Shown: positions 2,020 to 27,924 of the stretch, in pieces
How the letters are laid out: every line of letters begins with the position of its first letter
Position numbering within the stretch: position 1 is the stretch's first letter
From: Promethearchaeota archaeon
GTDB taxonomy: Archaea > Asgardarchaeota > Lokiarchaeia > Sigyniarchaeales > SOKP01
Assembly (NCBI GenBank): GCA_048941285.1
Contig: JBHLNS010000043.1
Coordinates: 1 to 27,924, forward strand
Length of the DNA stretch: 27,924 bases
Direction: 5' to 3'
Notes under the pieces: generated by a model
What the model was told of the DNA's origin: nothing
Database searches by the model: none
The model's input: the letters and a program-made list of their open reading frames with translations, nothing else
Made by a program: the position numbers and the translations under genes

Positions 2020-2135
2020 CTCATAATAAAATTATTTGAAAAAATATGGGAATTTATTAATTATTCAATGTATAAACTATATTTTTTAAATTAAAATAAT
2101 AAAATAAATAAAAAAAAGATTTATCTGAGGTTATT

Positions 2136-3621: not shown

Positions 3622-3795
3622 TTATATTGGAAAGTCTCTCCGTATTTGGAGTTCACGCTTACAGTAACGAATTTGGCTTTTTATAAACCTAAGTGGCCTT
3701 GGTTGTATGAGGTGCTCATATTTTTGTAGATGATCTTCCAAAAGATTGATTGCAAGTTCAAGCTTATTAATTCTATTTTGAGTTTGGCTCATCAT
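3622..3795 (-). CDS. Small hypothetical protein, 57 aa, predicted helical
   Basis: Below the ORF-track cutoff. MMSQTQNRINKLELAINLLEDHLQKYEHLIQPRPLRFIKSQIRYCKRELQIRRDFPI*, with GAGGT upstream. It fills an otherwise 550-nt gap. Confidence 0.6.
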   Translation of the reverse strand: MMSQTQNRINKLELAINLLEDHLQKYEHLIQPRPLRFIKSQIRYCKRELQIRRDFPI

Positions 3796-4003
3796 AATTT
3801 TAGCTTACCTCAAACCCTTAATTTTTTAATAATAAAGATTCAAGAGTCATCAATTAAAAAATAGATAGAGGGCTCAGATTTTATGGATTTTTACAATGAA
3901 TTTAAACTGTTATTATTAACTCTTCTCATAATCTAATTAAATCATGAATTTTTTTATCTATTAAGACCTCTTTAAGGAATTTTTAAATTAAGGGATTATT
4001 AAA

Positions 4004-5107
4004 ATGGATGATAATTTTTGGTATAAACTTTCCCGTGTAATTGTAAAAGCAGGAAATATGCCATTTCCAATAACAGATACTTTAATCGAATTATTGCACA
4101 ATATTGTTTCTGAGGAAGAAGCTGAATTTATAATTAACGTCTATAACCGAAAACCTAACATGAATCTTAATGAAATTAAAAAGAAATCAGGAATAGATGA
4201 CACTTCGTTGATGAAAATATTGGATGATCTACAATTTAAGGGAGTAATCGTTGGTACAGAAAGCAAAACTACAGGTATTATTGTTTATCGATTGCAGCCT
4301 CCATTTCCGGGATTGTTTGAGTTTCAGTTGATGCGTCCTAAGGAGGGGGAGCATGAAAAAAAGCTAGCTCGATTATTTAATAAATTATTTGGAGAAATGG
4401 GACAATTAACATCTAAAAACTATGAATCTTTAATTCCTCAGTACAAAAATTTTCCTCCTATAGATCATGTAATACCAGTTGGGAAAGAAGTGGATTCTGC
4501 GGCAGATATTATTTTATCAAGTGAAGATGTAAAAAACATTATTGATAAATATAATGATATTGCTATAGCACTTTGTTATTGTCGTCATGAAAAGGATTTA
4601 ATTGATGAGCCATGTAGGATAGATGCTCCAAGAAGAAATTGTTTTCTTTTTGGAAAGACTGCAAAGTTTTGCATTGAAAAAGATTTCGCTGAACCAATAA
4701 CTAAAGATGAGGCCATTAAAGTTTTGCGAGAAGCAGAAGATGTTGGGTTAATACACAAAGCATTTCATATACATCAAAACCCAGAAAGAGATTTAGAGGC
4801 GATCTGTAATTGCTGTAATTGTTGTTGTGGTGTATTTCAACTATTTAACCGAGGAGTAATGCCATTTTATACGGTATCTAATTATTTAGCTGTTGTGAAT
4901 GAAGATGAATGTATTGGATGTGGTACTTGTGAAAAAAAATGTCCAATGCAAACCATCAAAGTAGAAGATGGTATAGCAGCTGTAAATGAAGATAAATGTA
5001 TTGGTTGTGGTGTCTGTGCTCATCATTGTCCTGAAGAGGCTATACATCTGAAAAGATCTGAATCTAGAGATGTTTTTATCCCACCAAAAAAAATTAAAGT
5101 AGAATAA
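4004..5107 (+). CDS. Fe-S protein with N-terminal winged-helix-like region, Cys-rich centre and C-terminal 2x[4Fe-4S] ferredoxin domain
   Basis: CYCR, ICNCCNCCCG, and two CxxCxxCxxxCP motifs (CIGCGTCEKKCP, CIGCGVCAHHCP). Confidence 0.88.
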   Translation: MDDNFWYKLSRVIVKAGNMPFPITDTLIELLHNIVSEEEAEFIINVYNRKPNMNLNEIKKKSGIDDTSLMKILDDLQFKGVIVGTESKTTGIIVYRLQPPFPGLFEFQLMRPKEGEHEKKLARLFNKLFGEMGQLTSKNYESLIPQYKNFPPIDHVIPVGKEVDSAADIILSSEDVKNIIDKYNDIAIALCYCRHEKDLIDEPCRIDAPRRNCFLFGKTAKFCIEKDFAEPITKDEAIKVLREAEDVGLIHKAFHIHQNPERDLEAICNCCNCCCGVFQLFNRGVMPFYTVSNYLAVVNEDECIGCGTCEKKCPMQTIKVEDGIAAVNEDKCIGCGVCAHHCPEEAIHLKRSESRDVFIPPKKIKVE

Positions 5108-6011: not shown

Positions 6012-7250
6012 TTATTTTTTTAAATGCCTTGGAATTTTTACCTCAAGATCAGAAACTGGAAAAGAGTAACATGGATGAAAGTAGTTAAATTTCTTATCTG
6101 CTGCTCTCCTCCAATCATTTATTGGACTTATATAAATATTTCCTGAAATGAGAAGAGAACGACAAAATCCACACTCTCCAGAGCGACATTTTGATGGTGG
6201 AGCTAGATTTGCTCTTTCCATAGCAACAAGAACTGACTCGGTAGCATTTGCAGGGATTTCTTTTACTTTAGCCCCAATATGCGTAGTAATTTTAAAAACT
6301 TTATCAGCAACTTCTTTAGGAAATCCTGGATAGTTTTCAATATGCTTGATTTCACCAAATGCTTCTCTTCGGATTCTTTTACGAGGTACCTTAAATTTTT
6401 CCAATTCTCTTTGTACGAATTCATACATTACTTGAGGACCACAGATGAAAAAGGTGCTCTTGTTTACATCACAATACTTTTCAATAATCTCGGCTGTTAT
6501 AAAGCCAGTCTCACAGTCTTCTAAAGAAACTACTTCACAACTTAATACATTAACAACTTTTAATTTGTCTGGATGTTTTTTCTCAAGTTCCTTTAATTCT
6601 TCAGAATAAATAATATCATCTTCTTCACTACTTCCATATAAGATTGTTAGTTTCGCATCAATTATCCCGTCTATTATTGCCATTGCTATCGAGCGAAATG
6701 GAGTTATCCCTGATCCACCTGCAATCCCTACTATTTGCTTTAAATCTCGTAGAGGTTCATAATAAAAGAATCCTTCAGGTCCAGAACTCTCAACCACTGT
6801 ATCAACTTTCCAATTATTCCATATATATTGAGTTAAGAAACCATGATCTTCTTTACGTATCGTTATTTCATAGAAACCATTTTGGGCGTCTTTTGGTGAA
6901 GAAGCTATTGAATAAGGGCGTGTTATTTCTACTCCATTGACTTTTACTTTTAAACTTAAATATTGCCCCGGTCTAAAATAAGCTAACTCTTTTGTCCTCG
7001 AACCAACGTGAGGTTCCAGTTTAAAAGTTTTTGCACTTTTTGTTTCTTCCTTGATTTCACTTATGACTAAATATTGTCTTTTTGGATGAAGTCTTTTCGC
7101 AAGTTCGTTTATTGGATCGGTTTTTATTGGTTCGCTAGAAGCATTTTCAATTTTCTTTTTTCTATCTGGTACTAGCTTCATAAACGCTAGCAAATCTCTC
7201 GAATTGCTCCTAATAGTGATATCAAACTTCTTTTCCTCTTCTTTACTCAT
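6012..7250 (-). CDS. FNR-type FAD/NAD(P)H reductase with C-terminal [2Fe-2S] domain (PaaE/Hcr-like architecture)
   Basis: RPYSI, GPEG, IAGGSGITPF, FICGP and CRSGECGFC...HPC. Confidence 0.9.
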   Translation of the reverse strand: MSKEEEKKFDITIRSNSRDLLAFMKLVPDRKKKIENASSEPIKTDPINELAKRLHPKRQYLVISEIKEETKSAKTFKLEPHVGSRTKELAYFRPGQYLSLKVKVNGVEITRPYSIASSPKDAQNGFYEITIRKEDHGFLTQYIWNNWKVDTVVESSGPEGFFYYEPLRDLKQIVGIAGGSGITPFRSIAMAIIDGIIDAKLTILYGSSEEDDIIYSEELKELEKKHPDKLKVVNVLSCEVVSLEDCETGFITAEIIEKYCDVNKSTFFICGPQVMYEFVQRELEKFKVPRKRIRREAFGEIKHIENYPGFPKEVADKVFKITTHIGAKVKEIPANATESVLVAMERANLAPPSKCRSGECGFCRSLLISGNIYISPINDWRRAADKKFNYFHPCYSFPVSDLEVKIPRHLKK

Positions 7251-8991: not shown

Positions 8992-9996
8992 CTATACTAA
9001 ATTATTTATTATTATTTCAGAAATATCTCCAGCATATTCTCCCGTTCTTCTAATGCTTTCAATAATATACCCAATTGCTATTGACAATTCAGCACTATTG
9101 GTAGTATCAAGAGATATTTTTTCCGTAGTTAAAATTAATTCCTTTATCGCTTCTATATTTTGATTTGCTAGTAAAATACTTTTTTGAAGCCATGCATCAA
9201 GGCTTTTATCTAACAAATCTAATGCTAATTTACTTGCTACTAAGATGTTTTTAATTAAACCATTTTCAATCTTTTTGTAATCTATTAGTAGTACATTCTT
9301 AGCAATACGAACTGCATGATCCCCAACCCTTTCGAGAAACCTCGATATTTGTTGGAAATGATTTGCTTGCTCTAACGTTAAACCCATCTTTTGGCAGAGA
9401 ATGATGTCTCTCAATGCTATGTGAGATTGACGACCAATTAACCAATGTAATCTATCGACATCATTATCTCGTTTTATTACGTCTTCTGCTAAGTTTTTAT
9501 CACCCATTTCTAAAGCTTTAATTGCATCAAAATGCATGTCGTGAACAAGAATATACATTCTTTTTATGGTTTTTTCGAAAGGCATTTCGGTTGGATTGAG
9601 CAAATCTTTAATTACTATGAAATTATTAGATTCTTCAACTACTTCAGGACCAATTGCTATTTGAGTGAAATTATTGATACAATCTCTAATATAAGTTTCA
9701 AATTTCTTACTAGATTTAATTATAATTTTCGAAAAGCCCATTATATATGATCCAATTAAAACACGGAAAAAATAATTGTCGTCCTTAAATTCATCTACAA
9801 CTATCTCTTTAGTCTTGATTATTTTTTCACTATCAATTTGAGGAGTTATTAGCAAATTTCCATCAGGTTGAGATAAAATACCAAGAGTATCTTTTGATTC
9901 TATCCCATTTTTATCAATCCATATCTTTGGCAAGCTTATAATATAAGAACTTCCCCCCGTTTTCTGAACTTTTCTTGTTTCTATATGAAATGACAT
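8992..9996 (-). CDS. phoU: Archaeal phosphate uptake regulator (N-terminal AbrB/SpoVT DNA-binding domain plus PhoU repeats)
   Basis: ETRKVQKTGGSSYIISLPKIW (AbrB-like), DNDVDRLH, LERVGDHA and ESIRRTGEYAGDISE. Confidence 0.93.
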   Translation of the reverse strand: MSFHIETRKVQKTGGSSYIISLPKIWIDKNGIESKDTLGILSQPDGNLLITPQIDSEKIIKTKEIVVDEFKDDNYFFRVLIGSYIMGFSKIIIKSSKKFETYIRDCINNFTQIAIGPEVVEESNNFIVIKDLLNPTEMPFEKTIKRMYILVHDMHFDAIKALEMGDKNLAEDVIKRDNDVDRLHWLIGRQSHIALRDIILCQKMGLTLEQANHFQQISRFLERVGDHAVRIAKNVLLIDYKKIENGLIKNILVASKLALDLLDKSLDAWLQKSILLANQNIEAIKELILTTEKISLDTTNSAELSIAIGYIIESIRRTGEYAGDISEIIINNLV

Positions 9997-10056
9997 GTTT
10001 TTATCCCTTTTCTTCTATTTATATAAAAATAAGAAACAATATATTTAAATACTAAT

Positions 10057-10137
10057 CTATATATACTATATATTTTTATTCGTTTTTATATGTTCTTCAG
10101 CTAGTTTTCTTAAAAAGAGCCTATATTAAATATATAG
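10057..10137. promoter_or_regulatory. CTATATA box cluster upstream of phoU
   Basis: CTATATA at 10057 and 10066 (9-nt period). Palindrome CTATAT-N5-ATATAG at 10121-10137. Confidence 0.55.
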
Positions 10138-10243
10138 ATGATCTTTTTATGAATGATTTTATTATTTTATTCAGAAAACAAGATATCTCATATTAAAGTA
10201 AAATAAAAAATGTAAATTTTAAATAAAATTAGTTGATTTTTAT

Positions 10244-10870
10244 ATGGATTCTTATAACAAAATACCCGAGGCTGAAATTAAGCCTGTAGGAGAGATATCA
10301 AAAAAATTATTAAACCTTGGAATTAAATCATTTAGAGAAGCTTGTGAGTATATTCATAATATAGAATACGGTTATAATACTAATTATGATGATATGATGA
10401 TTCTATTTAAGGAGAATAAGGGTACTTGTACAACTAAACACGCCACAATTGCAGGATTGGCTAAAGAACTCGGAATACCTCTTTATAAACACGTTGGTGT
10501 TTATAAATTTACAGAACAAATCTCTACTGGCACTAATGAAATTCTGTTGAAATATAAAATTCCATACGTTCCAATGGTACACTGTTTTTTGGTTTATAAA
10601 GATTTTCGATTTGATCTAACGGAAGGTAATTGTAATGGAAAAAATACAACTCTAGAAGAATTTATTCATGAAGAAAAAGTAGATCCTTTCATTAGCAGAA
10701 AAGATGAATATTTACTGCTTAAAAGAGTTATAAAGGAAAAAGTCTTACCATCTAAAGAAATGGAAGGGATTAAAGAGAGATCAATTCTAAAAGCTAGAGA
10801 AGAAGCAATTATTCTTTTAAAAGAAAATATGGAAAGACAAAAAAAATTGATTATAAATTACAGTAGCTAA
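10244..10870 (+). CDS. Hypothetical protein, transglutaminase-like (Cys-His-Asp) fold candidate
   Basis: KGTCTTKH, VHCFL and FDLT occur in the order expected for a transglutaminase-like triad. Confidence 0.65.
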   Translation: MDSYNKIPEAEIKPVGEISKKLLNLGIKSFREACEYIHNIEYGYNTNYDDMMILFKENKGTCTTKHATIAGLAKELGIPLYKHVGVYKFTEQISTGTNEILLKYKIPYVPMVHCFLVYKDFRFDLTEGNCNGKNTTLEEFIHEEKVDPFISRKDEYLLLKRVIKEKVLPSKEMEGIKERSILKAREEAIILLKENMERQKKLIINYSS

Positions 10871-10889
10871 GTTGAGATGTATAAATATA

Positions 10890-11582
10890 CTAAATTCCTT
10901 TTTCACTAGTTAATAAAACCATTATATAATCTGCGACACCTTCAATTGAATCTGAAATGGCTTCAAGAATATCGAAAATATTCCCTACGGTAAATATAGT
11001 GAAAAAATTTACATCATAATGAGTTTCTTGGAGGCTTTTTCTAAGTTGTATGTTAAGAAGATCAATTTTATGCTCGTGTTGATTTATTTGCCTTGCAATC
11101 TCTTTAACATTTTTTCTATCTTCTACTAAATCTATGACAATTTTATCAAGGAATTCTCCACACTCAACAGATGTTGTCATAATTTGACTGGCCAGACTTA
11201 AAGTTTCCTCACTGCTTTGTTCCCAAAATTTAATTGGTACCGTAGCAATCCTTCGAGCAACACCTGTACAACAATTTGCAACGTCATCCATCCTCTTAAC
11301 CAAATGAGATAAGTTTTGCCGTATACTAGGATCTAATTCTCCTCTGGAAATATCTTGTTGTATTGTTCTTCTTAATTTATCTGCGTCTCTTTCTAAAATA
11401 TCAACTTCATGAAAAATACTAGATGATTTATCAAGGTTCTTTTCATTCAAAAGCATTTGCAATCCTTCATCTAGCTTCCTTACACATTCTTGTACTTTTT
11501 GAGCATGTTTTATGGTCTTTTCTAATGCATTTAAAGCAGTTTCTCTTTTCAAATATTCAATTAAAGAGCCCATTTTCATCAA
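10890..11582 (-). CDS. DUF47 (PhoU-fold) phosphate transport regulator
   Basis: LERDADKLRR, RMDDVAN, HEHKID and LEAISDSIEGVAD. Adjacent to PiT. Start is TTG 11582 or ATG 11579. Confidence 0.88.
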   Translation of the reverse strand: MMKMGSLIEYLKRETALNALEKTIKHAQKVQECVRKLDEGLQMLLNEKNLDKSSSIFHEVDILERDADKLRRTIQQDISRGELDPSIRQNLSHLVKRMDDVANCCTGVARRIATVPIKFWEQSSEETLSLASQIMTTSVECGEFLDKIVIDLVEDRKNVKEIARQINQHEHKIDLLNIQLRKSLQETHYDVNFFTIFTVGNIFDILEAISDSIEGVADYIMVLLTSEKGI

Positions 11583-11604
11583 TTTTTTATTTATTTTCTA
11601 TTAT

Positions 11605-11631
11605 CTATATAGAATATATAGAAATATATAT
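11605..11631. promoter_or_regulatory. TATATAG box cluster between pit and DUF47
   Basis: CTATATAGAATATATAGAAATATATA. Units at 11606, 11615 and 11625, with palindrome CTATAT-N5-ATATAG at 11605-11621. Confidence 0.55.
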
Positions 11632-11652
11632 TTTGTTATTATTTTTTATTGA

Positions 11653-12690
11653 TCAAGAAATACCAAATATACTAAATCCAAAATAAATAGAACCAGCTAA
11701 TATCGCAGCTATAGGAAATGTTAATACCCAAAAGATTGCCATTTTGCCTAGTCCTTTATAATCTACTTCTTTTTTTTGAGCAAGGCTCATACCAACTATA
11801 CAGAAAACAATTACATGGCTATGGGAAATTGGTAAAGCAAATAATGTTGCAATCATTAATATAATTGCCGAGCTTAACTGAATAATAAATCCTTCACTCG
11901 GGCGTGTATCAATCATATGAGATGCCAGATTTCTGATTACATATCGTGCAGCAAAGTAAATCCCGAGAAATGAAAAGATCGCACATATTATTGCAAATGT
12001 AAAATATAGCCCACTTGTAATTGAATTATTTTCTCTAAGTCCTAAGAGTATACCTAATGCTTCTCCTGAATTAGCACCAACCCATATCTCTGCAAAAATA
12101 ACAGCAATCAATAAAAACCACTTAAATCTTTTTTCAGACTTTTCAATTTGATTTAATCCCCTTAATCTTGATAAGAAAAATTTAGCACTTATTTTAAAGA
12201 GAATATATGTTACTAACAGACCTGATATTGGTGATATAAACCAACTTAAAACAACATCTCTTAATTTCTCATAATTGAATGCTGTATTAATATCAATACC
12301 CCCTTGAAAGATAGCATATACAACAACAACACCTACAATGCTACCTATAAGTGAGTGAGTACTGCTTAAAGGTATACCCGCAAAACTACCTATTACTAAC
12401 CATATAATACTACTAATTAAAACCGTTAAAAGCATGTAATTAGTGTATTGCGATTCTAAACCCTCTCCTAAAAGACTTTTTCCCACCGTTTCTGGGACAA
12501 AACCACCACTGAAAAGTATCATACCACTCCCTATTGCGATACCCCCTAAAATCAATGCTATTTTAAATTTCAAAACGCCAGCACCAACTAAGGAAGCAAG
12601 AGTTTCATCATTAGCACCAATACTAAAGGCTAAGCCAACAGCCATCATAACTAGGACTATAACTAAGATTATCGTTAATTCTTCAGCCAT
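11653..12690 (-). CDS. pit: PiT (PHO4/SLC20) family inorganic phosphate transporter, divergent
   Basis: IGAND, GIPLSSTHSLIG and SWFISP in the first repeat. GANS, LPISHSH and WVLTFP in the second repeat. Confidence 0.88.
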   Translation of the reverse strand: MAEELTIILVIVLVMMAVGLAFSIGANDETLASLVGAGVLKFKIALILGGIAIGSGMILFSGGFVPETVGKSLLGEGLESQYTNYMLLTVLISSIIWLVIGSFAGIPLSSTHSLIGSIVGVVVVYAIFQGGIDINTAFNYEKLRDVVLSWFISPISGLLVTYILFKISAKFFLSRLRGLNQIEKSEKRFKWFLLIAVIFAEIWVGANSGEALGILLGLRENNSITSGLYFTFAIICAIFSFLGIYFAARYVIRNLASHMIDTRPSEGFIIQLSSAIILMIATLFALPISHSHVIVFCIVGMSLAQKKEVDYKGLGKMAIFWVLTFPIAAILAGSIYFGFSIFGIS

Positions 12691-12713: not shown

Positions 12714-13376
12714 TTAATCAAAAATTAGGTATTTTGTTGCAAGAAACTGAATATATTCAGAGAAATCTTTCATATGATCGGCTAACATCATTATATCTTC
12801 AATTAAATTCTTCAAGTATAAAAATGTTCTAGATAGATAATCCATATCATAATTATAAAGACGATTTAATAAGCTCCATTCTTCATTTCTCATTTTCCTT
12901 CGTTCTTCTTTAATATCCTCACATATATCCTGAGCTTTACTAAGATCAGAGCCAATTAATTTCACTGCATCTGATACATTATTAGAGATTGTTCTTAGTG
13001 ATTTTAACACACTTTGAATTTGAAGCTTAAATTGCTCATCTGGAAAAACAACTTTATAAAGCAGCATACGATTTGCTAAATATTCTCCTATATTTTTAAT
13101 ATCATTAATTTTATTGAATAACTTTAATCTATCGGCCTTAGAGAACATTAATTTAGATTTGAATATTTTAGATTCAAATTTTTTTTTTATTTTAACCTCA
13201 GTGTTTGTATCTATTACGTAATTCAGATTTTCTTTAAATTTAGCGAAATCTTCTTTAACAAGACATTCTATTCCTTTTATCAACGTGATATTTTGTTCAT
13301 GTATGTTATCCATGAATAATTTTGTTAACTCATCAATACTGAGCTTATTTAAATCTGTATCCTCAATCTTTTTCAT
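12714..13376 (-). CDS. Divergent DUF47/PhoU-fold protein
   Basis: Similar size and helical pattern to its neighbours (DRLKL..KINDI, IEDIMMLADHMKDFSE), but lacks the ExxAD/EHxxD motifs. Ends 23 nt before pit. Confidence 0.65.
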   Translation of the reverse strand: MKKIEDTDLNKLSIDELTKLFMDNIHEQNITLIKGIECLVKEDFAKFKENLNYVIDTNTEVKIKKKFESKIFKSKLMFSKADRLKLFNKINDIKNIGEYLANRMLLYKVVFPDEQFKLQIQSVLKSLRTISNNVSDAVKLIGSDLSKAQDICEDIKEERRKMRNEEWSLLNRLYNYDMDYLSRTFLYLKNLIEDIMMLADHMKDFSEYIQFLATKYLIFD

Positions 13377-13628: not shown

Positions 13629-14324
13629 TCATTTTAGCTTTAAGGTCTTCTTAGCAACAGTCAACATGATAATGTAGTCAGCGACGTCTTCAGCATTATC
13701 ACTAACAGCTTCTAACGAGGATACCGAATTATGAATTTCGATTGCACTAAAGGGATTAATATCTGGATTTTTGGACACCAAAATTCTATTTATCCCATGA
13801 CGTAATTCGTCGCATTTATGTTCTAATACATTAATTTCTTCTCCTAGCTGCGTTATTTCCTCTTCTTTCGCGGTCAATAATTTATTTACCATAATATTTA
13901 CTTTCTTAACTGCTTCTACAGATATGCTAGTCATTTCTAAAAATTTCATATGAACTTCCGCATCCAATTTTAAAAAATCGGAATGATTCATATAAATGAA
14001 TATTCTGGCTCCTGCATTAGCAGCATTCGCTATATCATCAATCCTCTGAGTAAGATGAATCAAACTCTCACGAATTGTTGATGAGATCTCTGATTTTGAA
14101 ATCATATTCATTATATTTCTCCGGATCCCATCAGCTTGATGTTCTAATTCATCAACACGAAAAAAAACTTTTAACGATAGATCGATATTTTTTTCATTAA
14201 GTAGATAAGACATAGCTTTTTCGTATTCAACCACACACTCAAGAACTTTTTGCATATGAATTAACGTCTTATTTATAACATTTTCTTCATTACGCGATTT
14301 AAACCATTCAAATAATGAACTCAT
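13629..14324 (-). CDS. DUF47 (PhoU-fold) phosphate transport regulator
   Basis: LEHQADGIRR, RIDDIAN, LEHKCD and LEAVSDNAEDVAD. SD GGAGGT at 14335-14340. Confidence 0.9.
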   Translation of the reverse strand: MSSLFEWFKSRNEENVINKTLIHMQKVLECVVEYEKAMSYLLNEKNIDLSLKVFFRVDELEHQADGIRRNIMNMISKSEISSTIRESLIHLTQRIDDIANAANAGARIFIYMNHSDFLKLDAEVHMKFLEMTSISVEAVKKVNIMVNKLLTAKEEEITQLGEEINVLEHKCDELRHGINRILVSKNPDINPFSAIEIHNSVSSLEAVSDNAEDVADYIIMLTVAKKTLKLK

Positions 14325-14362: not shown

Positions 14363-15586
14363 TTATTCCAATTTTAATACTTCTTTTATAATATTGAATC
14401 CTGGATGTTTGAATATAATTCCCAACTCTTTTGGAAAATAAACAGTAACTTCTGAATTTTCTATAAAAGTACTATGAACTTCACTAGTTGCAGGAATTGT
14501 GACTACTATTATCTTTTCTTGTTCTTTTAGATTAATAAGAACTTCAAATCGATAAAAAACACCCATAAACTTACGTCGTTTTATCGTTCCAAAAATGGAG
14601 TTTTTCTTGTCTTTTACTCTATTTCCAATTCTTATCTTCATATGGTTTGCTCTAACTACTAATAATATTTTATCTCCATGATTAATTATATTATGTTTAT
14701 CTTTTGGTACATAAGAAACAAATATTTCATCTAATCCTATATCAATAGGCATAGGAGATGAATCTTCATGTATTTTAGCAAAAAATTTGTCTTTCTGTTT
14801 AGATGTCTTATGAATATCCCATGCTGGTATAGTCTTTTTTATACATACTCCCTCAAAATAATTAATTTCACTCATGAAGTTAGCAACAAAAAGACTTTTT
14901 GGATTATAATAGATTTGATCAGGCGTACCTAATTGTATGAGCCGTCCTTGGTTCATGATGGCAATACGATCAGCTAACATCATTGCTTCTCTTTCATCAT
15001 TTGTTACATGAATTGAGGTAAGCCCTAATTGCGATGATTTAGCCATTAATAATAATTCCCTTCTCAAATTCATCCTTAAACCAGCATCAAGTGCTTTTAA
15101 CGGTTCATCTAAAATTAACAATTTTGTATGCTCTAAATTTAAAAGCGCTCGACATAATGCTACTCGTTGTCTCATGCCACCACTTAGTTCATCTGGAAAT
15201 GCATCATTCCTTCCAGTAAGGAGAGTCATCATTAAAACTTGATCTACTAATGTTTGAGTTTGAGCCATATCACGAGCATGTACTCGTCCACTATAAGAAA
15301 TATTTTCAACAATATTCATGTGAGGAAACAAGGCATAATTTTCAAACATAAACCCTAGGTTTCTTTCTTCTGAGGTTTGGTTTGTCACATCTTTACTATC
15401 GAAGAAAACTTTTCCCGAATCTGGTTTTAAAAGGCCTGCAAGGATTTTAAGTAGTGTTGTCTTGCCTGCCCCAGTGGGGCCAAGAATTACAAAATATTCT
15501 TTATCCTTTATTTCGAGAGAAATAGTATCAAGAGCTTTAAAATTTCTGAAATTCTTATTGACATCTTTTAATTCTATATGTACCAT
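14363..15586 (-). CDS. ABC importer ATPase 2 (PotA/MalK/CysA-like, TOBE-like C-terminus) with degenerate Q-loop and H-switch
   Basis: Walker A GPTGAGKTT, signature LSGGMRQR, Walker B LLILDEP. Q-loop reads FENY and H-switch reads VTND. Confidence 0.92.
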   Translation of the reverse strand: MVHIELKDVNKNFRNFKALDTISLEIKDKEYFVILGPTGAGKTTLLKILAGLLKPDSGKVFFDSKDVTNQTSEERNLGFMFENYALFPHMNIVENISYSGRVHARDMAQTQTLVDQVLMMTLLTGRNDAFPDELSGGMRQRVALCRALLNLEHTKLLILDEPLKALDAGLRMNLRRELLLMAKSSQLGLTSIHVTNDEREAMMLADRIAIMNQGRLIQLGTPDQIYYNPKSLFVANFMSEINYFEGVCIKKTIPAWDIHKTSKQKDKFFAKIHEDSSPMPIDIGLDEIFVSYVPKDKHNIINHGDKILLVVRANHMKIRIGNRVKDKKNSIFGTIKRRKFMGVFYRFEVLINLKEQEKIIVVTIPATSEVHSTFIENSEVTVYFPKELGIIFKHPGFNIIKEVLKLE

Positions 15587-15602
15587 TCAATAATCACCAT
15601 AT

Positions 15603-16748
15603 TTATGTTAAAGATAATTCTTTAAGAAGATTATTAGGAGTTCTAAATACATGGATATCATTTTGATGAATTCCAATAATTAATTCTTGCCCATGAACAA
15701 AATTTTCCTCAAAATTACCAGGTTTTATTGATGAGAACCTATCTCCATTATCTAATATTAAATAAAATCTCTTAGTTGCTCCTATGAATCTTGAACTTTC
15801 AAGAGTAGTCTTAAATAATTGCATTTTTGACCAATCATAAGGGCTATTTTCGAAATCATAATCCAGTGGAAATAAATAGACATCTTCAAATCGAAAAGCA
15901 ATTACAATATTGTCATCTAGATTAAATTTGTTATTAAAATTATTACATAATAGTTTCGGTCCTCCTAACCTTATCCAAACCTCCATCTTTTCTTTTTCAA
16001 TCAGTTTTAAGACAAAACCTTGGAGGAAATTAGTTTCTCCTAAAAAATTTGCTACAAATATACTATTTGGATTTTCATACAAATCATAAGGAGATCCCAT
16101 TTGTAAAACATTTCCAGAACGCATGATAATTATTTTATCAGCTATCGCCATTGCTTCCTCTTGATTGTGAGTGACATGAATAGCGGTAAGACCTAAATCC
16201 TTTATTAAATTTCTTAACTCATTACGAAAAACTTTTGAAACTTTTGGATCTAATGACCCTAATGGTTCATCCATGATTAAAATTTTCGCTCCAGTGGCGA
16301 TTGCTCTAGCAATTCCAAGTTTTTGCAACCCTGGATTTCCAAATATGTTTGGATATTCATCAGCATAATCTAATAATCCAACTTTGATCAAAGCTTCTTC
16401 AGCTTTTTTAATAATATAATTATCGGGATACCCACGCATTTCTAGACCAAAAGTCACATTTTCCCAGACAGTTAACTGATCAAAAATTTCAAAATGCTGA
16501 AATATGAAACCCATATCTCTATCTTCTGGGGGAATGCCCCTAATATCTTCGCCATTTATTAAGACTTTTCCCAATGAAGGTTCTTCTAGTCCTGCAATCA
16601 TTCTTAGTGTTGTTGTTTTTCCACATCCAGTAGGTCCAATTAAAAATACATATTCTCCATCTTCAATTTTTACGGAAATATTATCCACCGCAAGAACTTT
16701 TCCTGCATTAAATGTTTTTGTAACGTTAACTAACTCTATACTTGGCAT
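15603..16748 (-). CDS. ABC importer ATPase 1 (PotA/MalK/CysA-like) with degenerate signature motif
   Basis: Walker A GPTGCGKTT, Q-loop FQHF, Walker B ILIMDEP, H-switch VTHN. The signature position reads FGNPGLQK. Confidence 0.92.
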   Translation of the reverse strand: MPSIELVNVTKTFNAGKVLAVDNISVKIEDGEYVFLIGPTGCGKTTTLRMIAGLEEPSLGKVLINGEDIRGIPPEDRDMGFIFQHFEIFDQLTVWENVTFGLEMRGYPDNYIIKKAEEALIKVGLLDYADEYPNIFGNPGLQKLGIARAIATGAKILIMDEPLGSLDPKVSKVFRNELRNLIKDLGLTAIHVTHNQEEAMAIADKIIIMRSGNVLQMGSPYDLYENPNSIFVANFLGETNFLQGFVLKLIEKEKMEVWIRLGGPKLLCNNFNNKFNLDDNIVIAFRFEDVYLFPLDYDFENSPYDWSKMQLFKTTLESSRFIGATKRFYLILDNGDRFSSIKPGNFEENFVHGQELIIGIHQNDIHVFRTPNNLLKELSLT

Positions 16749-16752
16749 AAGG

Positions 16753-18429
16753 TTAACCCCTTTTTTTTCTCACTGCTCTTAAGGCAAAAATTAAGAATGC
16801 ACTAAAAATTATAACAATAACACTTGCAAAGATTCCTGATGCATAGGCATTTGCCTCAACAAAATCAACGATTAGGACAGGAACTGTCCTTATACCTCCC
16901 ATTACAACAATAGTAGCGCCTGTTTCTCCTAATGAGCGAGTGAAAGTCATGATGCATCCTGCAATTATCCCTTGTTTTATATTAGGAAGTGTAATTTTTC
17001 TAAATACCGTCATATTTGAAGCACCTAAAGTACGTGCTGCTTCTTCAACACCTTTATTTGAAGATTCCAGAACTCCGATAATAGGTCGAACCATATACGG
17101 AAATGTAAAAGCAATATGTACAAACAAGATCATAAAAAACCCAGATTGAAATAATCCTAATCCTGTTGGCCCCCAAAACATAAATGTTGCAAATCCTAAA
17201 GCTGCTGAAGGAATTGCAATTGGAATATCTAAAATGGTATCCAAAAATGTAATAACTTTCCCCCAATTTCGTTTTGTAATTATAAATGCAAAAGGTATTC
17301 CAAAAATTATATTTACAAAAACAGCTAACGCTCCAATTTCTATTGAATAAATAAAACTTGTATAGAGAAATGCCCATTTATAATCTTGCCCTAAAAATAC
17401 TTCCCCTATAAAATCTTCTCCAAAAATTTCTGCAATAATATAAAAAGCAGGTATAAGAATTACAATAAAAAGTACACCTAATGATAAAACATCCCTTAAA
17501 CGTTTCAGATTCTTTTTACTTAAAAACTTTTCAATTTTAGGCCAAACTGATTTAACCGGGAATCTGCTCTTTCGAGTCAAAATTTTAATTGAAAATAGTA
17601 GTAGAATAGATATGGCAATTAATATTCCTGCCAACAATGAGGCAGAAGGCAGTTCTAATTGCCGTCTAAAACCCACAATCAGAATAGGAGCTGTCTCCAC
17701 TAAACCAGAAAGTATGATTGTAGCACCAGTTTCACCTAAACTTCTTGTAAAAGCAAGGATGGCACCAGCTATTAATCCTTCTTTCATTAATGGAAGAGTG
17801 ATGGTTCGAAATACAGTGAAACCTGAAGCACCTAGGCTTCGAGCTGCATCTTCATATAATGTAGCCGTTTTTTCTAATACAATTTTCATATTCCTTACAA
17901 TATATGGAAAAGTAAATACTATATGTCCTAATAAAATCAGAGTAAATCCTGGTTGAATTCCAAATATTCCCCAAAACAACATTATAGAAAATCCTAAGGC
18001 ACTTGTTGGTACTGCCATTGGCAAATCTACTAAAGCATCGAATATTTTTTTTCCTCTAAAATTATAACGAGTTAATATAATTGAAATTGGAAAAGCAATA
18101 ATAATATCTATCCCAACGGCTATTGCTGCAATTGAGAAGGAGTACCCTAGAGCTCTCAATATATTAAGCCATTGTAAATTACCTAATAATGAGTCGTTAA
18201 ACACATCCTCATTTATCGCGGGAATGTTGAAAAGAACTGTAGAAAAAATGTTAATTATTGGACCAATAATAACCAATACAAAGAAAATAATTACTATAGT
18301 GTCAAGACTTTTTCTGTATATTGATTTGGAAAAGAATCTATCTATTCTTAACACTAGAGGTAATTTTAACTCCTCTTCAAGAGATTCTTGAGTCAAATTG
18401 CGATCTTTTTTAAAGATTTTGTTTAACAT
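16753..18429 (-). CDS. ABC permease with two fused CysT/CysW/ModB-like domains
   Basis: Two EAA loops (YEDAARSLGAS, VEEAARTLGAS). DLPMAVPTSALG/DIPIAIPSAALG and FTRSLGETGAT each occur twice. Confidence 0.92.
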   Translation of the reverse strand: MLNKIFKKDRNLTQESLEEELKLPLVLRIDRFFSKSIYRKSLDTIVIIFFVLVIIGPIINIFSTVLFNIPAINEDVFNDSLLGNLQWLNILRALGYSFSIAAIAVGIDIIIAFPISIILTRYNFRGKKIFDALVDLPMAVPTSALGFSIMLFWGIFGIQPGFTLILLGHIVFTFPYIVRNMKIVLEKTATLYEDAARSLGASGFTVFRTITLPLMKEGLIAGAILAFTRSLGETGATIILSGLVETAPILIVGFRRQLELPSASLLAGILIAISILLLFSIKILTRKSRFPVKSVWPKIEKFLSKKNLKRLRDVLSLGVLFIVILIPAFYIIAEIFGEDFIGEVFLGQDYKWAFLYTSFIYSIEIGALAVFVNIIFGIPFAFIITKRNWGKVITFLDTILDIPIAIPSAALGFATFMFWGPTGLGLFQSGFFMILFVHIAFTFPYMVRPIIGVLESSNKGVEEAARTLGASNMTVFRKITLPNIKQGIIAGCIMTFTRSLGETGATIVVMGGIRTVPVLIVDFVEANAYASGIFASVIVIIFSAFLIFALRAVRKKRG

Positions 18430-18446: not shown

Positions 18447-19571
18447 CTACGCTGTTGCTTTACATAATAACCATAAATCTGAGATCTTCAATAGTACTTC
18501 TCCATCTAATGGAGTATTTAGCTCAGGAACATTAAGTTCATAAGCAATTCCATTAGTCTCATAGTTAAATACTTCAGGATCCAATGGAATTGAAGGATTG
18601 ATTGGTCTAAATCCGTATTCTAATGCAGAAATAACAGTCTCATTATTATTTAAAAATTCAAGAAATGCTTCAGCTACAAATCTTTGCTGAGGGCTTATCC
18701 AATCCGCATTTAATATGCAAAATGGATGATCACTATATAAAGTGCCTTCTTCTGGATATACAGCAATGATTTTCCCTCCTGTAGCAGTACTAGAAATATC
18801 CCTTATTAAATTTTCATATAAAAACGCAATATTTAAAGCGGTTGGTCCCTCATTTTTCATATAACGTGCTAAGAAGCCAGTAGATGTTCCATAAACTACT
18901 GCACTAGACTCAAATTCTCGTAGCCATTGTTGGTTACTTAAATTGGTGAGATCAGATATTGTCAAATTTTCCGAAGAAGTACCTGAGGCTGCTGATAATG
19001 CCATAATTACACTCATAAACCCCGAATTTGATAATCGAGGATCAGTATGAGCCATTTTAATATTTATAGTTGGATTTAAAGACAGATTATGTACATCGTT
19101 GAAACCCTTAATATTATAAGTCTGGTTAAAAGACTCCCATGTAGCAATTACTATAGGCGAGTAAATTATTTTAACTGCAGCACTTATATTTACTATTGGG
19201 ATAATACTATGAGTTAGATCAGCCCACTTCGAATTTAAAAATGGCATCCAGATAGAACTTGCGGGACTCCAGATTGTAGGATATATCTCACCATTGAGGA
19301 TACTAATTATTGAGTTTGAAGACCCATATGGATGCATATCAATACTTATTGGTTCATCGGGATGAGTATTTTGCCACTCACTCAAAAAGCTTGTATATGC
19401 AACTGTCATCCAACTTGCTTTTTCAGAACTATAAATGATTGTTATATGTGTTTTGTTTTCTGTACCCCCTATTATAAGATTTGTCGATAATGTTCCTATA
19501 ACGAAGCCTATTATAAATATAAGTACTAAACTAAGTTTACTATGTCTTTTAATTTTGCGTGATTGATCCAT
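18447..19571 (-). CDS. Membrane-anchored extracellular solute-binding protein (ModA-like fold, resembling the SBP domain usually fused to vWA domains)
   Basis: Basic N-terminus plus one TM helix. Motifs YSSEKASW, PTIWSPASSIW, SPIVIATW, HTDPRLSNSG, TSTG, YENL, YPEEGTLYSDHPF and YGFRP. Confidence 0.85.
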   Translation of the reverse strand: MDQSRKIKRHSKLSLVLIFIIGFVIGTLSTNLIIGGTENKTHITIIYSSEKASWMTVAYTSFLSEWQNTHPDEPISIDMHPYGSSNSIISILNGEIYPTIWSPASSIWMPFLNSKWADLTHSIIPIVNISAAVKIIYSPIVIATWESFNQTYNIKGFNDVHNLSLNPTINIKMAHTDPRLSNSGFMSVIMALSAASGTSSENLTISDLTNLSNQQWLREFESSAVVYGTSTGFLARYMKNEGPTALNIAFLYENLIRDISSTATGGKIIAVYPEEGTLYSDHPFCILNADWISPQQRFVAEAFLEFLNNNETVISALEYGFRPINPSIPLDPEVFNYETNGIAYELNVPELNTPLDGEVLLKISDLWLLCKATA

Positions 19572-19845: not shown

Positions 19846-21420
19846 TTATAGTAGACTTTCACCAATAACACTCTCATGTGGTCTTTTTCCTAAAAATTTA
19901 ACTAATGTAGGAACTATATCAGTAACTTTACAAGCATTAACTCTCTTTTGAGGAATCTCTGAAGATCCACCTATAATTAAAGGAACTGCCATGCATTTCT
20001 GAAGGCCAATATCATGATCGTATAGACTTTTGCTTTTTTGCTTTCCATGATGAATGCCGTATTTTATTGTTTCATCATTACATAGGATTATATCAGCGCT
20101 TCTTGGGTTTTTAAAATGACGAGGTATTAAATCTGGGTGCATAGGGTAATCTAAATGGTATGTAGCTTCTAACCATTCTTTAGTTGAGTGGAATTTATTA
20201 TCCATTAATTGAATTGCGATATTATCATTTCTAAAATTAAAAATGTCTAATTTATTATCTTCTGAGATATAACGTGTTTTATATTCCTTCCCAATACCTT
20301 CATACTCAATCTTTCCAGTTATTATTCTACCTGTATCTTTAACTTTTCTTTTAAGGTGAATTGTACCTTTCTCATGTGTATTATTTTCATCTCTATAAAA
20401 CATCAAATGGCTTCCATTAATTTTAAATAAATCTTCTAATAAATTTATCCTTTTTGGGCCATATCGTTCAAGTTCTTTAATGCTCGGAAGACCCCAACTA
20501 TTTTTAAGATTGATATTAGTAAATCCTTTAAAATAGAAAAATCCTACACCAGCATAATAAGCAAGATCCATATTTCCTCTTATATTTTTGAAAGGATGAT
20601 AATTTACTAAACCATTTTGCTTAAAATATGGTCTTAAATCTCCAATTTTGTTAGATTTATAATTTCCATGATCAGATGTAATCGCTATAGCAGTTTCATC
20701 TAAATAACCCAATCTCTCCAAATTATCAATCAATACTCCAATAACTTTATCAATGTGTAGTAAATTTAATTTATAAATTTGCGAATCATATCCAAATTTA
20801 TGCATCAAAAGATCAGATGACATAAACCATATTGAAGAAGCAATTGGTGGATCTGCATTATGAAAAAATTTTTTAGGTTTCTCAAATGTTTCAATTAATT
20901 TTTGCACAATAACAGAATTCGAACGGGCCATCCTTCTTTTTACACTTGGAAAGTATCTCAAAACAAGATAAAGCATAGCAAGTTTAGTTTTTCTTTCGGG
21001 AAAAACGTAATCAGCTCCTCTATTAATGAATTGAGCTATACTAGCAGTATTTCCATCACCCACCATTTCAAGAAATGTTTTGCAATTATTCCCTATATCA
21101 TTGTTAATTTTATAGATTTGTAAATCTAAAGCAGCATATTCTCTTAACATTGGAGGCGATACTTCACGTCCCATCCAATTTAGAAGTGGAACTCCGTGAC
21201 ATGGTTCTTTTTTAAAATTTCCGGTATAGGTCCCTGTCAATAAAGAAACTTGTGTAGGATAAGTAATAGGTGGAAAGTCAGTAATACAATTTTCTGAATA
21301 AATGCCATTTTCCATTAATTTCTTAAAATTTGGCAATAAACCCTTTTTTATATAATCAAAGAAATGGGTAGCTCTAATGTCATCTATTATACAAAAAATA
21401 ACTCTGCTGATTTTATTAAT
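19846..21420 (-). CDS. Alkaline phosphatase superfamily enzyme (type I phosphodiesterase/nucleotide pyrophosphatase), probable ATT start, 524 aa
   Basis: VIFCIIDDIR lies upstream of the track's TTG. Other motifs: FPPITYP (Thr nucleophile), SDLLMH, TSDHG, YDHD, VPLIIGG and DIVPTL. Confidence 0.87.
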   Translation of the reverse strand: MNKISRVIFCIIDDIRATHFFDYIKKGLLPNFKKLMENGIYSENCITDFPPITYPTQVSLLTGTYTGNFKKEPCHGVPLLNWMGREVSPPMLREYAALDLQIYKINNDIGNNCKTFLEMVGDGNTASIAQFINRGADYVFPERKTKLAMLYLVLRYFPSVKRRMARSNSVIVQKLIETFEKPKKFFHNADPPIASSIWFMSSDLLMHKFGYDSQIYKLNLLHIDKVIGVLIDNLERLGYLDETAIAITSDHGNYKSNKIGDLRPYFKQNGLVNYHPFKNIRGNMDLAYYAGVGFFYFKGFTNINLKNSWGLPSIKELERYGPKRINLLEDLFKINGSHLMFYRDENNTHEKGTIHLKRKVKDTGRIITGKIEYEGIGKEYKTRYISEDNKLDIFNFRNDNIAIQLMDNKFHSTKEWLEATYHLDYPMHPDLIPRHFKNPRSADIILCNDETIKYGIHHGKQKSKSLYDHDIGLQKCMAVPLIIGGSSEIPQKRVNACKVTDIVPTLVKFLGKRPHESVIGESLL

Positions 21421-25595: not shown

Positions 25596-25810
25596 ATTTT
25601 ACACCTTTTATTTAATAAAAATTCGTATCTATAAAATTAAAATTTGTCTGTTTAAAATTATAACGATGCTTTGAGGAATTTTAGCCTTTTTATAAATTAT
25701 TTTGAATTTAAAGTAGCGATTAAATTATTAAAAAAGGACTAGTCGGTATTAAAATAAATATTATACTAATTAATCATAATAGAAATTAAAATAATTTTTT
25801 AATGAATTTT

Positions 25811-27924
25811 ATGCCACCTCCAAAAAAGAAAAAACTAGAAGATAAGGAACAAAAGTCACTTTTTTCCTTTGTTGAGGAAAAAGATGAGAAACAAGAAAAA
25901 TCAATTAAAACACCTAAAGAGCCTAAAATTGAAAAACCCAAGCAAGAAAAAGCAAAAAAAGAAGCGCTTCCAAAAAAAGAGCAAATTAAAGAAAAAAGAT
26001 CTTCAAAATTATATTTTACAGGAAAGGATGAGCCTTTTGGGCTAAAATCCGGAAATATTAAAGTAGATAAAGTTTTACGAGAGAGTGTATCTTCGAAATA
26101 TATTCGATATCTTATTGAAAAGGGTGAAATTAATGAAGATATAGAAAGAGGATTATTACTCGATGTAGACTATGATGGTGGACAAAATAAAGCATATTGT
26201 AAGTTCTATGATTTAGATTCTGACGATATAAAGATTTGGATCGATACGACCGATCATGAGCCTTATTGTCTAAGTAAAGAACCTATTTCAGAATTAGAAA
26301 AACTATATTACACTGAATCTACCGGAAAGAAGAAAAAACTGACGGATTACGAAGGATTTCAACGATTTGAAGAAATTCAACGTTTTGATTTATTAGGAGA
26401 TAGAGAGATTGATATGACCAAGATTTATGGTAAAACTCCAACTAATATTGGAGGTTCTGGAATAAATATACGTAATATTTTAGGTAATAATGAAAAAAAA
26501 GCTTGGGAGGCAGATATTAGGTATCATTTGAATTATATATTTGATCGGCAATTAATCCCAGGACTTATCTATAAAGTTGACAATGGAAAGCTTATAAAAT
26601 TAAATTTCGAAGAAACTGATGAAGATTCAAGAAAAATGGCTAATGAACTTCGAACAATATTCAAGGATGAATCTTCAGAAATTCAAGAATTTAGTGAAGA
26701 ATTTTTAGACATTTTTATTACTCCCATTCCAGATGTTAAACGTATGGCTATGGATATTGAGGTTATGGTTGGCGAGAGAGATTATAAAATACCTGATCCA
26801 CGTTTGGCAAAACAAGAAGTCATTAGTATATCATTTGTAGCTTCAGATGGTTTGAAGCTAGTTTACCTACTTGAGAGAGAAGGTTATAAATTTGATAAAT
26901 TACATGAGGAATTCCCTTCTGATGCTAAAATAATTTTTTTCAAATCTGAAAAACAATTATTAACTGAAACTTTTCGACTAATATGGGAGTATCCTGTTCT
27001 TATTACATTTAATGGTGACAATTTTGATTTAAATTACTTATACCATAGAGCAGAAATATTAAAAATTGATAAAGACTTAAATCCTATTCATGTAAAGCGA
27101 GGTTTTGGGATTTTATCACAAGCTGAATGTGACTTACGTAGAGGAATTCATATTGATTTATTTAATTTGTTTTTCAATAGGAGTATTTCCGGTTATGCAT
27201 TTGGAGGTGCTTATGAAAACGCATCTCTTAATTCTATTAGTGCCGCACTATTAGGGGAAGAAAAATTTCAGCACGATGAGATAATTCATGAAATGGAATA
27301 CGATATTCTTTCATGGTATAACCTTAAAGACTCAATCCTCACGTTAGACTTAACAAAATTCAACAGTTCTTTAGTTTGGAATTTAATAATTCTTTTATGC
27401 AGAATCACAAAAATGCCAATTCACGATATGGTTCGCAGGCAAATCTCAACATGGATTCAAAACATCTTTTATTTTGAACATAGAAGAAAAGAAGCACTTA
27501 TTCCCCGTAGATCAGAAATAAAGGAAACGAAACCAGGGGGGATATTATCATCTAAATTTGATGACGATAAATTTTTAGGCGCTTATGTTGTAGATCCTGT
27601 TCCGGGAATTCATTATGATGTAGTAGTTATGGACTTCGCAAGCCTATATCCGTCTATTATAAAGGAATATAATTTATCATATGAAACTGTTTTATGTCCT
27701 CATAAGGATGATAAAGATAATCTTGTTAAAGGAACACCATACCATATATGTACTCATAAAATGGGAATTTTTGCTTATGTTGTAGGTTTTTTCAGAGATA
27801 TAAGAGTCAAGTATTTTAAGCCAAAATCAAGTGATAAAACATTGACTGAAAAGCAACGAAATTATTATTTAACAATACAACAAGCGCTCAAAGTATTTAT
27901 TAATGGTTCCTATGGTGTTTTTGG
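25811..27924 (+). CDS. polB1: Family B DNA polymerase, archaeal B1 group, 3'-truncated by the window
   Basis: Missing from the ORF track because there is no stop in the window. LLDVDYDG..NKAYCKFYD...DTTDHEPY resembles the Dpo1 N-domain. ExoI MDIEV, ExoII FNGDNFD, ExoIII YNLKD, motif A DFASLYPSII, motif B QQALKVFINGSYG. Alternative in-frame ATG at 25802. Confidence 0.93.
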   Translation, partial: MPPPKKKKLEDKEQKSLFSFVEEKDEKQEKSIKTPKEPKIEKPKQEKAKKEALPKKEQIKEKRSSKLYFTGKDEPFGLKSGNIKVDKVLRESVSSKYIRYLIEKGEINEDIERGLLLDVDYDGGQNKAYCKFYDLDSDDIKIWIDTTDHEPYCLSKEPISELEKLYYTESTGKKKKLTDYEGFQRFEEIQRFDLLGDREIDMTKIYGKTPTNIGGSGINIRNILGNNEKKAWEADIRYHLNYIFDRQLIPGLIYKVDNGKLIKLNFEETDEDSRKMANELRTIFKDESSEIQEFSEEFLDIFITPIPDVKRMAMDIEVMVGERDYKIPDPRLAKQEVISISFVASDGLKLVYLLEREGYKFDKLHEEFPSDAKIIFFKSEKQLLTETFRLIWEYPVLITFNGDNFDLNYLYHRAEILKIDKDLNPIHVKRGFGILSQAECDLRRGIHIDLFNLFFNRSISGYAFGGAYENASLNSISAALLGEEKFQHDEIIHEMEYDILSWYNLKDSILTLDLTKFNSSLVWNLIILLCRITKMPIHDMVRRQISTWIQNIFYFEHRRKEALIPRRSEIKETKPGGILSSKFDDDKFLGAYVVDPVPGIHYDVVVMDFASLYPSIIKEYNLSYETVLCPHKDDKDNLVKGTPYHICTHKMGIFAYVVGFFRDIRVKYFKPKSSDKTLTEKQRNYYLTIQQALKVFINGSYGVF

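Follow-up and report, generated by a model that had tools for sequence, protein, structure and literature searches.

The window analyzed here is a 27,924-nt stretch of the genome of a Promethearchaeota archaeon (GCA_048941285.1, contig JBHLNS010000043.1, positions 1 to 27,924 of the forward strand). A tight operon on its minus strand encodes, in this order, a substrate-binding protein, a fused permease, two ATP-binding cassette (ABC) ATPases denoted A1 and A2, and a PhoU_div protein, with intergenic gaps of 17, 4, 16, and 38 bases (Table 1). Analysis of the two ATPases, which was initiated by an annotation made from the sequence alone (the initial annotation), suggests that they probably form a heterodimer with one hydrolytic and one degenerate ATP site.

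Both halves of the permease have an EAA coupling loop (at residues 193 and 462) and share 40% identity across 266 residues. The permease scored 245 bits, summed over both halves, against the NCBIfam sulfate permease subfamily TIGR00969, a small margin over the cut-off of 240. Neither A1 nor A2 reached the NCBIfam cut-offs for PhnT2 (scores of 270 and 285.5, respectively; cut-off of 457.7), PotA (265.6 and 258.2; 482), CysA (222.2 and 225.9; 502), or WtpC (210.9 and 240.1; 440). The top PDB matches of the ATPases were archaeal MalK-like proteins, PotA (8y5f), and ModC (3d31). The C-terminal domains of A1 and A2 matched TOBE_2 weakly, below the Pfam cut-off (19.9 versus 21 bits), and are referred to here as TOBE-like.

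Composition of the ATP Sites

Each of the two ATP sites of an ABC dimer comprises the Walker A and Walker B motifs, the Q-loop, and the H-switch of one subunit together with the signature motif of its partner. The Walker side of A1 is intact, and FGNPG replaces LSGGQ in its signature. A2 carries an intact signature (LSGGM), a glutamate in place of the Q-loop glutamine, and an asparagine in place of the H-switch histidine. Because the sites pair a Walker side with the signature of the partner, the Q82E and H196N substitutions of A2 and the FGNPG of A1 all map to one composite site. Judged by these motifs, the site formed by the A1 Walker side and the A2 LSGGM is consensus, and that formed by the A2 Walker side and the A1 FGNPG is degenerate. 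Deviations of both nucleotide-binding domains (NBDs) thus coincide in one composite site, the hallmark of pairs with one consensus and one degenerate site.

The positions that the initial annotation had given for these motifs agreed to the base and residue with the list of open reading frames (ORFs) and with our motif placement, which also confirmed its claim that all substitutions lie in one site while the other is canonical. Its description of the altered site as fully degenerate held for the three changed elements but not for Walker A and the Walker B Asp-Glu of A2, both of which are intact in the window. Nor could we follow it in counting the A2 D-loop, LKALD, as degeneration, since consensus-type relatives of A2 in the Thermoplasmatota already read LRALD (14 of 14). 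The presence of Lys or Arg at this position in consensus pairs indicates that it is ancestral and a marker of the paralog rather than of degeneration.

As a background for chance occurrence, a profile scan with an A1-type alignment provided, among the matches listed, 85 ordinary and mostly bacterial ATPase ORFs from 80 loci. Among these, none carried Q>E or H>N, and Ser-Gly-Gly was missing from only one, which by its other motifs seemingly belongs to another ABC subfamily.

Table 1. Motifs of A1 and A2, genes of the importer operon, and neighboring phosphate-type genes in the window.
Feature	Position	Strand	Details
A1 Walker A	16614-16637	-	GPTGCGKT, residues 38-45; intact
A1 signature	16329-16343	-	FGNPG, residues 136-140; degenerate
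A1 other motifs			Q84; Walker B ILIMDEP, residues 156-162 (D160-E161); D-loop LGSLD; H194; intact
A2 Walker A	15458-15481	-	GPTGAGKT, residues 36-43; intact
A2 Q-loop	15335-15352	-	FMFENY, E82 for Gln; substituted
A2 signature	15173-15187	-	LSGGM, residues 134-138; intact
A2 Walker B	15101-15121	-	LLILDEP, residues 156-162; intact
A2 D-loop			LKALD, residues 163-167
A2 H-switch	14993-15010	-	HVTNDE, N196 for His; substituted
Substrate-binding protein	18447-19571	-	374 aa, N-terminal membrane anchor; Pfam SBP_bac_11, 48.4 bits
Fused permease	16753-18429	-	558 aa; two BPD_transp_1 halves (Pfam)
ATPase 1 (A1)	15603-16748	-	381 aa; Pfam ABC_tran (PF00005), 94.9 bits, cut-off 25
ATPase 2 (A2)	14363-15586	-	407 aa; Pfam ABC_tran (PF00005), 109.8 bits, cut-off 25
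PhoU_div (DUF47, PF01865)	13629-14324	-	88.8 bits, cut-off 24.4; 38 bases after A2
AbrB/MazE + PhoU regulator	8992-9996		
PiT transporter	11653-12690		Flanked by PhoU_div genes at 10890-11582 and 12714-13376
Type I phosphodiesterase/NPP-like gene	19846-21336		

Conservation of the Altered Motifs

Screening of 41 related genomes, sampled at the level of the order, yielded 20 loci with full or near-full orthologs of A1 (49–84% identity); close homologs that carry a name all belong to Asgard lineages (e.g., Promethearchaeota, Lokiarchaeia). The paralogous ATPase, A2, adjoins A1 at 18 of these loci. Of the remaining two, one lies at a contig end and one truly lacks A2. All 20 A1 orthologs retain Walker A, the Q-loop glutamine, the Walker B Asp-Glu, and the H-switch histidine, and all 20 lack Ser-Gly-Gly, with signatures that read FGNPG, WGNGD, WSNGD, or L[NS]TPE. 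Likewise, the Q-loop glutamate, the H-switch asparagine, and an intact [LC]SGGM are each present in 18/18 A2 orthologs. Sixteen of the 18 keep both the Walker A lysine and the Walker B Asp-Glu; the other two, both from another family, additionally carry Walker B E>D.

The FGNPGLQK peptide is invariant in 9/9 close orthologs of A1, while all eight of its codons vary synonymously. That the peptide is maintained despite synonymous change at every codon shows that the altered loop is itself under purifying selection. Variation in HVTN and in most of FMFENYALF of A2 is likewise only synonymous among orthologs.

Two loci in this sample show irregular A2 regions or cassettes. At L112 (G033:C1:3092900-3110000) the cassette is apparently broken; the match to the binding protein covers only residues 224-369, and the A1 match ends at residue 330 within a 452-aa open frame. 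At L109 (G035:C59, ~6340-6350) A2 is divided between two ORFs, and the 10 N at the break mark a gap or masked stretch and are not evidence of a frameshift.

Distribution and Evolutionary History

A phmmer search of 1.84 billion representative sequences recovered further signature-less relatives with 36–47% identity to A1, and those with a name were all from Asgard archaea. In a phylum-level sample, 113 of 301 genomes encode an A1-like match at E ≤ 1e-62, and tandem pairs are frequent among these. We inspected 20 phylum-level loci, which comprised 17 ATPase pairs and three single consensus ATPases. Thirteen of the pairs are of the same type as that in the window, with A1 first and A2 second, and in the other four the gene order is inverted and both ATPases have near-consensus motifs.

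The A1 signature is lost in 13/13 of the window-type pairs (e.g., LSAPELQR, LNTPELQR, VGAADLQR). The A2 Q-loop residue is Glu in 11 and Ala in two, and the H-switch residue is Asn in three, Gln in one, and His in nine. Additional losses include Walker B E>Q in four A2 homologs, Walker B E>D in two, and Walker A K>P in three. All of these additional losses fall on the Walker side of A2, and none of the 13 pairs shows a loss in the Walker side of A1 or in the signature of A2. The confinement of Walker B Glu and Walker A Lys losses to the A2 Walker side suggests that catalysis at that site is dispensable. Taken together with the order-level sample, these alignments, which had been proposed in the initial annotation as a check for co-conservation, recovered the one-sided pattern in 20/20 A1 and 18/18 A2 orthologs and in the 13/13 further pairs, and bear out its argument for selection rather than decay.

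Phylogenetic reconstruction of 72 NBDs (a quick IQ-TREE search from which 10 close or truncated rows were omitted) placed the 23 signature-less A1 homologs in one clade (Shimodaira-Hasegawa-like approximate likelihood ratio test [SH-aLRT] support of 99) and the 23 A2 homologs with a changed Q-loop in another (SH-aLRT of 89). Consensus pairs branched outside of both clades. Among the genomes searched, the silenced form was seen only in those of Asgard archaea. Collectively, these observations show that the degenerate pair had a single origin within Asgard archaea and that later decay affected the same site only.

Related cassettes were identified outside of Asgard archaea. Within the Thermoplasmatota, 14 of 201 genomes encode the cassette, and 14/14 pairs are consensus on both sides; a further consensus pair from Thermoplasmata (L021) was identified in the background ATPase scan. 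Within the Thermoproteota, the cassette was detected in 24 of 201 genomes, with 10 loci encoding a single consensus ATPase, 14 encoding pairs, and one located at a contig end. In three of the Thermoproteota pairs (L148, L153, and L160), the first ATPase carries H>N alongside an intact Q-loop and the second reads LSGGIAQM. By their motifs, these changes again fall in one composite site and represent a milder, one-sided change in another phylum.

The initial annotation had taken the asymmetry to fit the fused, pseudo-symmetric permease. However, at the 10 single-ATPase loci of the Thermoproteota the same fused permease occurs with just one ATPase, of the consensus kind, and fusion therefore does not require an asymmetric pair. 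The simplest reading of the taxonomic distribution is a series that leads from a homodimer to a consensus heterodimer, then to a pair with one silenced site, and finally to further decay of that site.

We also considered whether the range of the cassette includes the Chloroflexota, and rejected this. Homologs of the binding protein were identified in 48 of 301 Chloroflexota genomes, and the seven loci inspected (L178-L184) feature tandem longer ORFs (~390–800 aa) and no fused permease, A1/A2 pair, or PhoU_div; no transporter genes were identified beside the binding-protein homologs at these seven loci.

Predicted Structure of the A1/A2 Dimer

A homodimer of A1 would comprise two signature-less sites and a homodimer of A2 would comprise two sites with Glu and Asn; a consensus site would arise only in the A1/A2 pair, and logic thus requires the heterodimer. 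We modeled the complex of A1 and A2 with two ATP and two Mg, using our own alignments and unrelated stand-ins as controls. The A1/A2 model attained an interface score (ipSAE) of 0.80 compared to 0.37 for the best control, with runs that agreed in at least 93% of contacts and a partner pLDDT (predicted local distance difference test) of at least 85. Of 157 solved complexes, 116 reach the mark used for ipSAE, as do two of 215 mismatched pairs; these counts are only roughly valid here given the use of our own alignments and of small molecules.

In the model, Walker A of A1 (residues 37-45) contacts the signature region of A2 (residues 133-141). The altered loop of A1 (residues 136-140) lies outside of the confident contacts, although absence from the contact list does not amount to the loop being shown apart. 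A large interface is also modeled between the C-terminal domains of A1 and A2, and this includes residues that are invariant in the ortholog alignments. The heterodimer model called for by the initial annotation scores above its controls and places A1 Walker A on the A2 signature, although the score may reflect likeness to solved dimers, and it is silent on whether a heterodimer is preferred over homodimers.

Genomic Neighborhood and Candidate Substrate

The order of the five genes is complete and collinear at 12 of 17 order-level loci. PhoU_div is adjacent at 15 of the 17, with the other two being a contig edge and the locus that lacks both A2 and PhoU_div. PhoU_div also follows the ATPases at 14/14 Thermoplasmatota loci and, as determined by BLAST, is adjacent in 11 of the 17 phylum-level pairs. 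Beside the cassette in the window are an AbrB/MazE + PhoU regulator, a PiT transporter gene flanked by two PhoU_div genes, and a phosphodiesterase gene, and this phosphate-type neighborhood recurs next to the cassette at six genus loci. An ORF on the plus strand (positions 10244-10870, 208 aa), for which Pfam gave no match, lies between the regulator and the PhoU_div and PiT genes and is kept in place at six genus loci (L101, L102, and L113-L116) with 75–81% identity. The other genes of the window are metabolic and include those for an aminotransferase, an MFS transporter, ferredoxin-domain and flavoprotein oxidoreductases, an M42 peptidase, and a DUF362 protein; a family B DNA polymerase gene (positions 25802-27922, plus strand) extends past the window end.

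The binding protein had no match in the PDB by sequence. Its AlphaFold model (pLDDT of 91.1) returned 5um2 as the top Foldseek match (E of 1.2e-13), and fold Z scores (VIA) were 27.5 for 5um2, 26.9 for 1sbp, 26.8 for the thiamin-binding 2qry, 25.5 for 4r6y, and ~24 for PotF and AfuA, at 13–14% identity. The protein thus has a cluster-D fold that is nearest to sulfate-binding proteins, with thiamin-, phosphonate-like, polyamine-, sugar-phosphate-, and iron-binding proteins close behind. Since these scores are nearly tied, no substrate can be named from the fold, and we abandoned the attempt to identify one by this route, as the whole cluster-D group matches the model almost equally. The gene neighborhood points to a phosphorus-containing anion, perhaps with slightly less than even odds.

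No PstC or PstB over the NCBIfam cut-offs was found in the source genome, which is 94% complete. The idea that the cassette replaces Pst was nevertheless rejected, since the two show no complementarity among 61 genomes of the family: 14 encode both, 15 the cassette only, eight Pst only, and 24 neither. These counts derive from related genomes that are not independent and of which some are incomplete. The only PBP_like_2 binding protein of the source genome (contig C62, positions 2486-3220) is encoded beside a small permease and a CysA-like ATPase, and this system may be of the tungstate or molybdate type. A small permease, a short ATPase, and a PhoU-like gene are located a few kb from the cassette at L102 (positions 2126-4448) and L114 (positions 10020-12342). 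These stretches are probably the tail of a pst-phoU operon; in the G023 genome, matches to PstC and PstA immediately precede the stretch. The cassette and Pst can therefore share one "phosphate" locus, as is probably the case at L102 and L114.

Comparison With Known ABC Systems

The systems closest to A1 and A2 by sequence are PotA, CysA, ModC, MalK, FbpC, and PhnT2, with PhnT2, PotA, the sulfate subfamily, and WtpC being the best NCBIfam matches. The PotA, CysA, ModC, MalK, FbpC, and PhnT2 ATPases are type I importer subunits that bear a regulatory domain at the C-terminus and act as homodimers with two consensus sites. The initial annotation knew of no degenerate case among CysA/PotA-like importers, and our survey of full-text literature, which covered few subscription journals, found no type I importer of the CysA/PotA/MalK-like clade whose separate ATPase subunits were described as a consensus/degenerate pair.

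In ABC exporters, as described in two reviews, the Walker-side deviations of one NBD and the signature deviation of the other coincide in one site (PMC3971661, PMC7756269). A1/A2 resemble TM287/288, TAP1/2, CFTR, BmrCD, and PatAB in that one composite site is degenerate and the other consensus, although for A1/A2 this is known from sequence. In those exporters the NBD is fused to the transmembrane domain, whereas A1 and A2 are separate soluble subunits with TOBE-like C-termini in a type I importer with a fused permease. The key change in TM287/288 is Walker B E>D (PMC3971661), whereas A2 in the window retains the Walker B Glu.

Among importers, the fused ATPases RbsA and NupO of Bacillus subtilis have one site that is degenerate by sequence, in which the signature deviates and the second Walker A lacks its lysine, according to a report that classes them as type II importers (PMC11466899). 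They carry two NBDs in one polypeptide and belong to a different ABC subfamily, whereas A1 and A2 are encoded by two genes, belong to the CysA/PotA/MalK-like clade, and carry different substitutions (Q>E, H>N, and the signature). A survey of Asgard transporters, in the part available, refers to SulT-family homologs in general terms only (PMC7997004). The one-sided design is well known from exporters and apparently undescribed in this kind of importer.

PstSCAB-PhoU follows the same operon logic as the cassette, with a binding protein, a permease, one or more ATPases, and a PhoU-type protein. However, the cut-offs of the Pst families were not reached by A1 (126.9 versus 343.2 for PstB) or by the permease (73.6 versus 196.45 for PstC and 65.2 versus 193.45 for PstA), and the accessory protein in the window is PhoU_div, of the PitR type, whereas that of Pst is PhoU. 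In a comparison of 926 bacterial genomes, PitA is present in 97.8% of genomes with PitR, and adjoins pitR with a single exception (PMC13170248). The PitR (DUF47)-PitA pair shares the accessory family, which in bacteria is associated with PitA rather than with ABC importers, whereas here and in related archaeal cassettes PhoU_div closes an ABC importer operon.

Proposed Mechanism and Alternative Explanations

We propose that A1 and A2 would be the two ATPase subunits, and an obligate pair, of one binding-protein-dependent type I ABC importer that would be genetically coupled to the PhoU_div protein. The Walker A and B motifs, Q-loop, and H-switch of A1 would form a single consensus, hydrolytic site with the LSGGM of A2. 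The Walker side of A2, with its Glu and Asn, would face the FGNPG of A1 in a second site that probably binds ATP and hydrolyzes it poorly or never. A single hydrolytic site would then power transport, and the TOBE-like C-terminal domains would hold the dimer together. As a joint explanation of the observations, a predicted A1/A2 heterodimer with one hydrolytic and one degenerate site has, in our estimation, a probability of roughly 0.75. We infer, from sequence, that hydrolysis may be lost and ATP still bound at the degenerate site, that the heterodimer would form in the cell, and that the silent site or PhoU_div may be put to regulatory use. A role of the silent site as a sensor of nucleotide or phosphate, as put forward in the initial annotation, is a guess, and the K>P substitutions of Walker A in three lineages indicate that nucleotide binding at this site is not needed everywhere, which argues against a universal nucleotide-sensing role.

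Several points weigh against this reading. A2 in the window retains both the Walker A lysine and the Walker B glutamate, so its sequence would allow hydrolysis to persist, in part or even at a normal level. Because the genomes are related, the counts amount to fewer independent observations than they suggest. The tree comes from a quick search, with SH-aLRT of 89 for the A2 clade and weak support (13) where this clade joins the first ATPases of consensus pairs. The score of the modeled complex may stem from likeness to solved dimers of the MalK, CysA, PotA, or ModC type, and it compares A1/A2 with unrelated controls, which does not separate a heterodimer from homodimers. Finally, the genome that encodes L112, which is 63% complete, has an A1 homolog and neither A2 nor PhoU_div within ~10 kb.

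The retention of the A2 Walker motifs, in the window and in 16/18 orthologs from the order, leaves room for a heterodimer in which both sites are catalytic with unusual residues, such that Glu coordinates Mg2+, Asn bonds the gamma-phosphate, and the altered A1 loop clamps ATP. The strong conservation of that loop, which implies some function, would be in keeping with this. We consider such a two-site enzyme unlikely, since across the phylum the same site loses the Walker B Glu (six of 13 pairs) and the Walker A Lys (three of 13) and the other site never does. Moreover, in ABC ATPases that have been studied, hydrolysis is abolished when the signature Ser-Gly-Gly is lost and likewise when the H-switch His is lost, which also speaks against catalysis at both sites. 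More improbable still is that A2 serves as a regulatory pseudo-ATPase or an alternative partner, with A1 forming homodimers or with A1 and A2 each forming homodimers depending on conditions, a scheme proposed for tandem pstB genes. The homodimers so formed would have two signature-less sites or two Glu/Asn sites, A1 and A2 are neighbors at 18/20 order-level loci and their trees are similar in shape, and the complex model sets the A2 signature on A1 Walker A. A precedent for non-equivalent partners is provided by Enterococcus, where tandem pstB genes are non-equivalent and, in E. faecalis, one of the adjacent genes can substitute when over-expressed (PMC12096839).

We give the least credence, and very little, to neutral decay of a redundant duplicate that is heading toward a pseudogene. 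The cassette is patchy (9/25 genomes of the genus in addition to the 113/301 of the phylum sample noted above), and A2 is missing at L112, as decay might produce. However, no stops interrupt the 18 A2 genes of the order or the 13 of the phylum, down to 35–45% identity; the substituted residues are invariant across the order, with only synonymous variation in the altered motifs; and every change is within one composite site. A consensus/degenerate heterodimer of A1 and A2 accordingly remains, in our view, the probable arrangement.

Implications

How many ATP are used per import cycle and what purpose the second site serves are long-standing questions that have been studied mainly through mutated homodimers. 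Homodimers do not allow the sites to be addressed separately, whereas separately encoded subunits such as A1 and A2 would let each site be mutated alone. Nature moreover provides graded states of this system, including the consensus pair, the silenced site, and the site without a Walker A lysine.

Taken jointly, and only tentatively, these features would allow a broader reading. The cassette family might represent a natural series of type I importers that runs from one ATPase through to a partner without the Walker A lysine; binding-protein-dependent import might need just one hydrolytic site; the silenced site of Asgard archaea, with its conserved C-loop (xxP[DEG]LQ[KR]) and paired TOBE-like domains, might form a surface for docking or sensing; and PhoU_div might throttle the uptake of phosphorus oxyanions through that surface.

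With the A1/A2 pair, the CysA/PotA/MalK-like clade would join exporters and fused sugar importers in having a consensus/degenerate design, and the pair draws attention to a widespread archaeal uptake cassette that ends in a PhoU_div gene.

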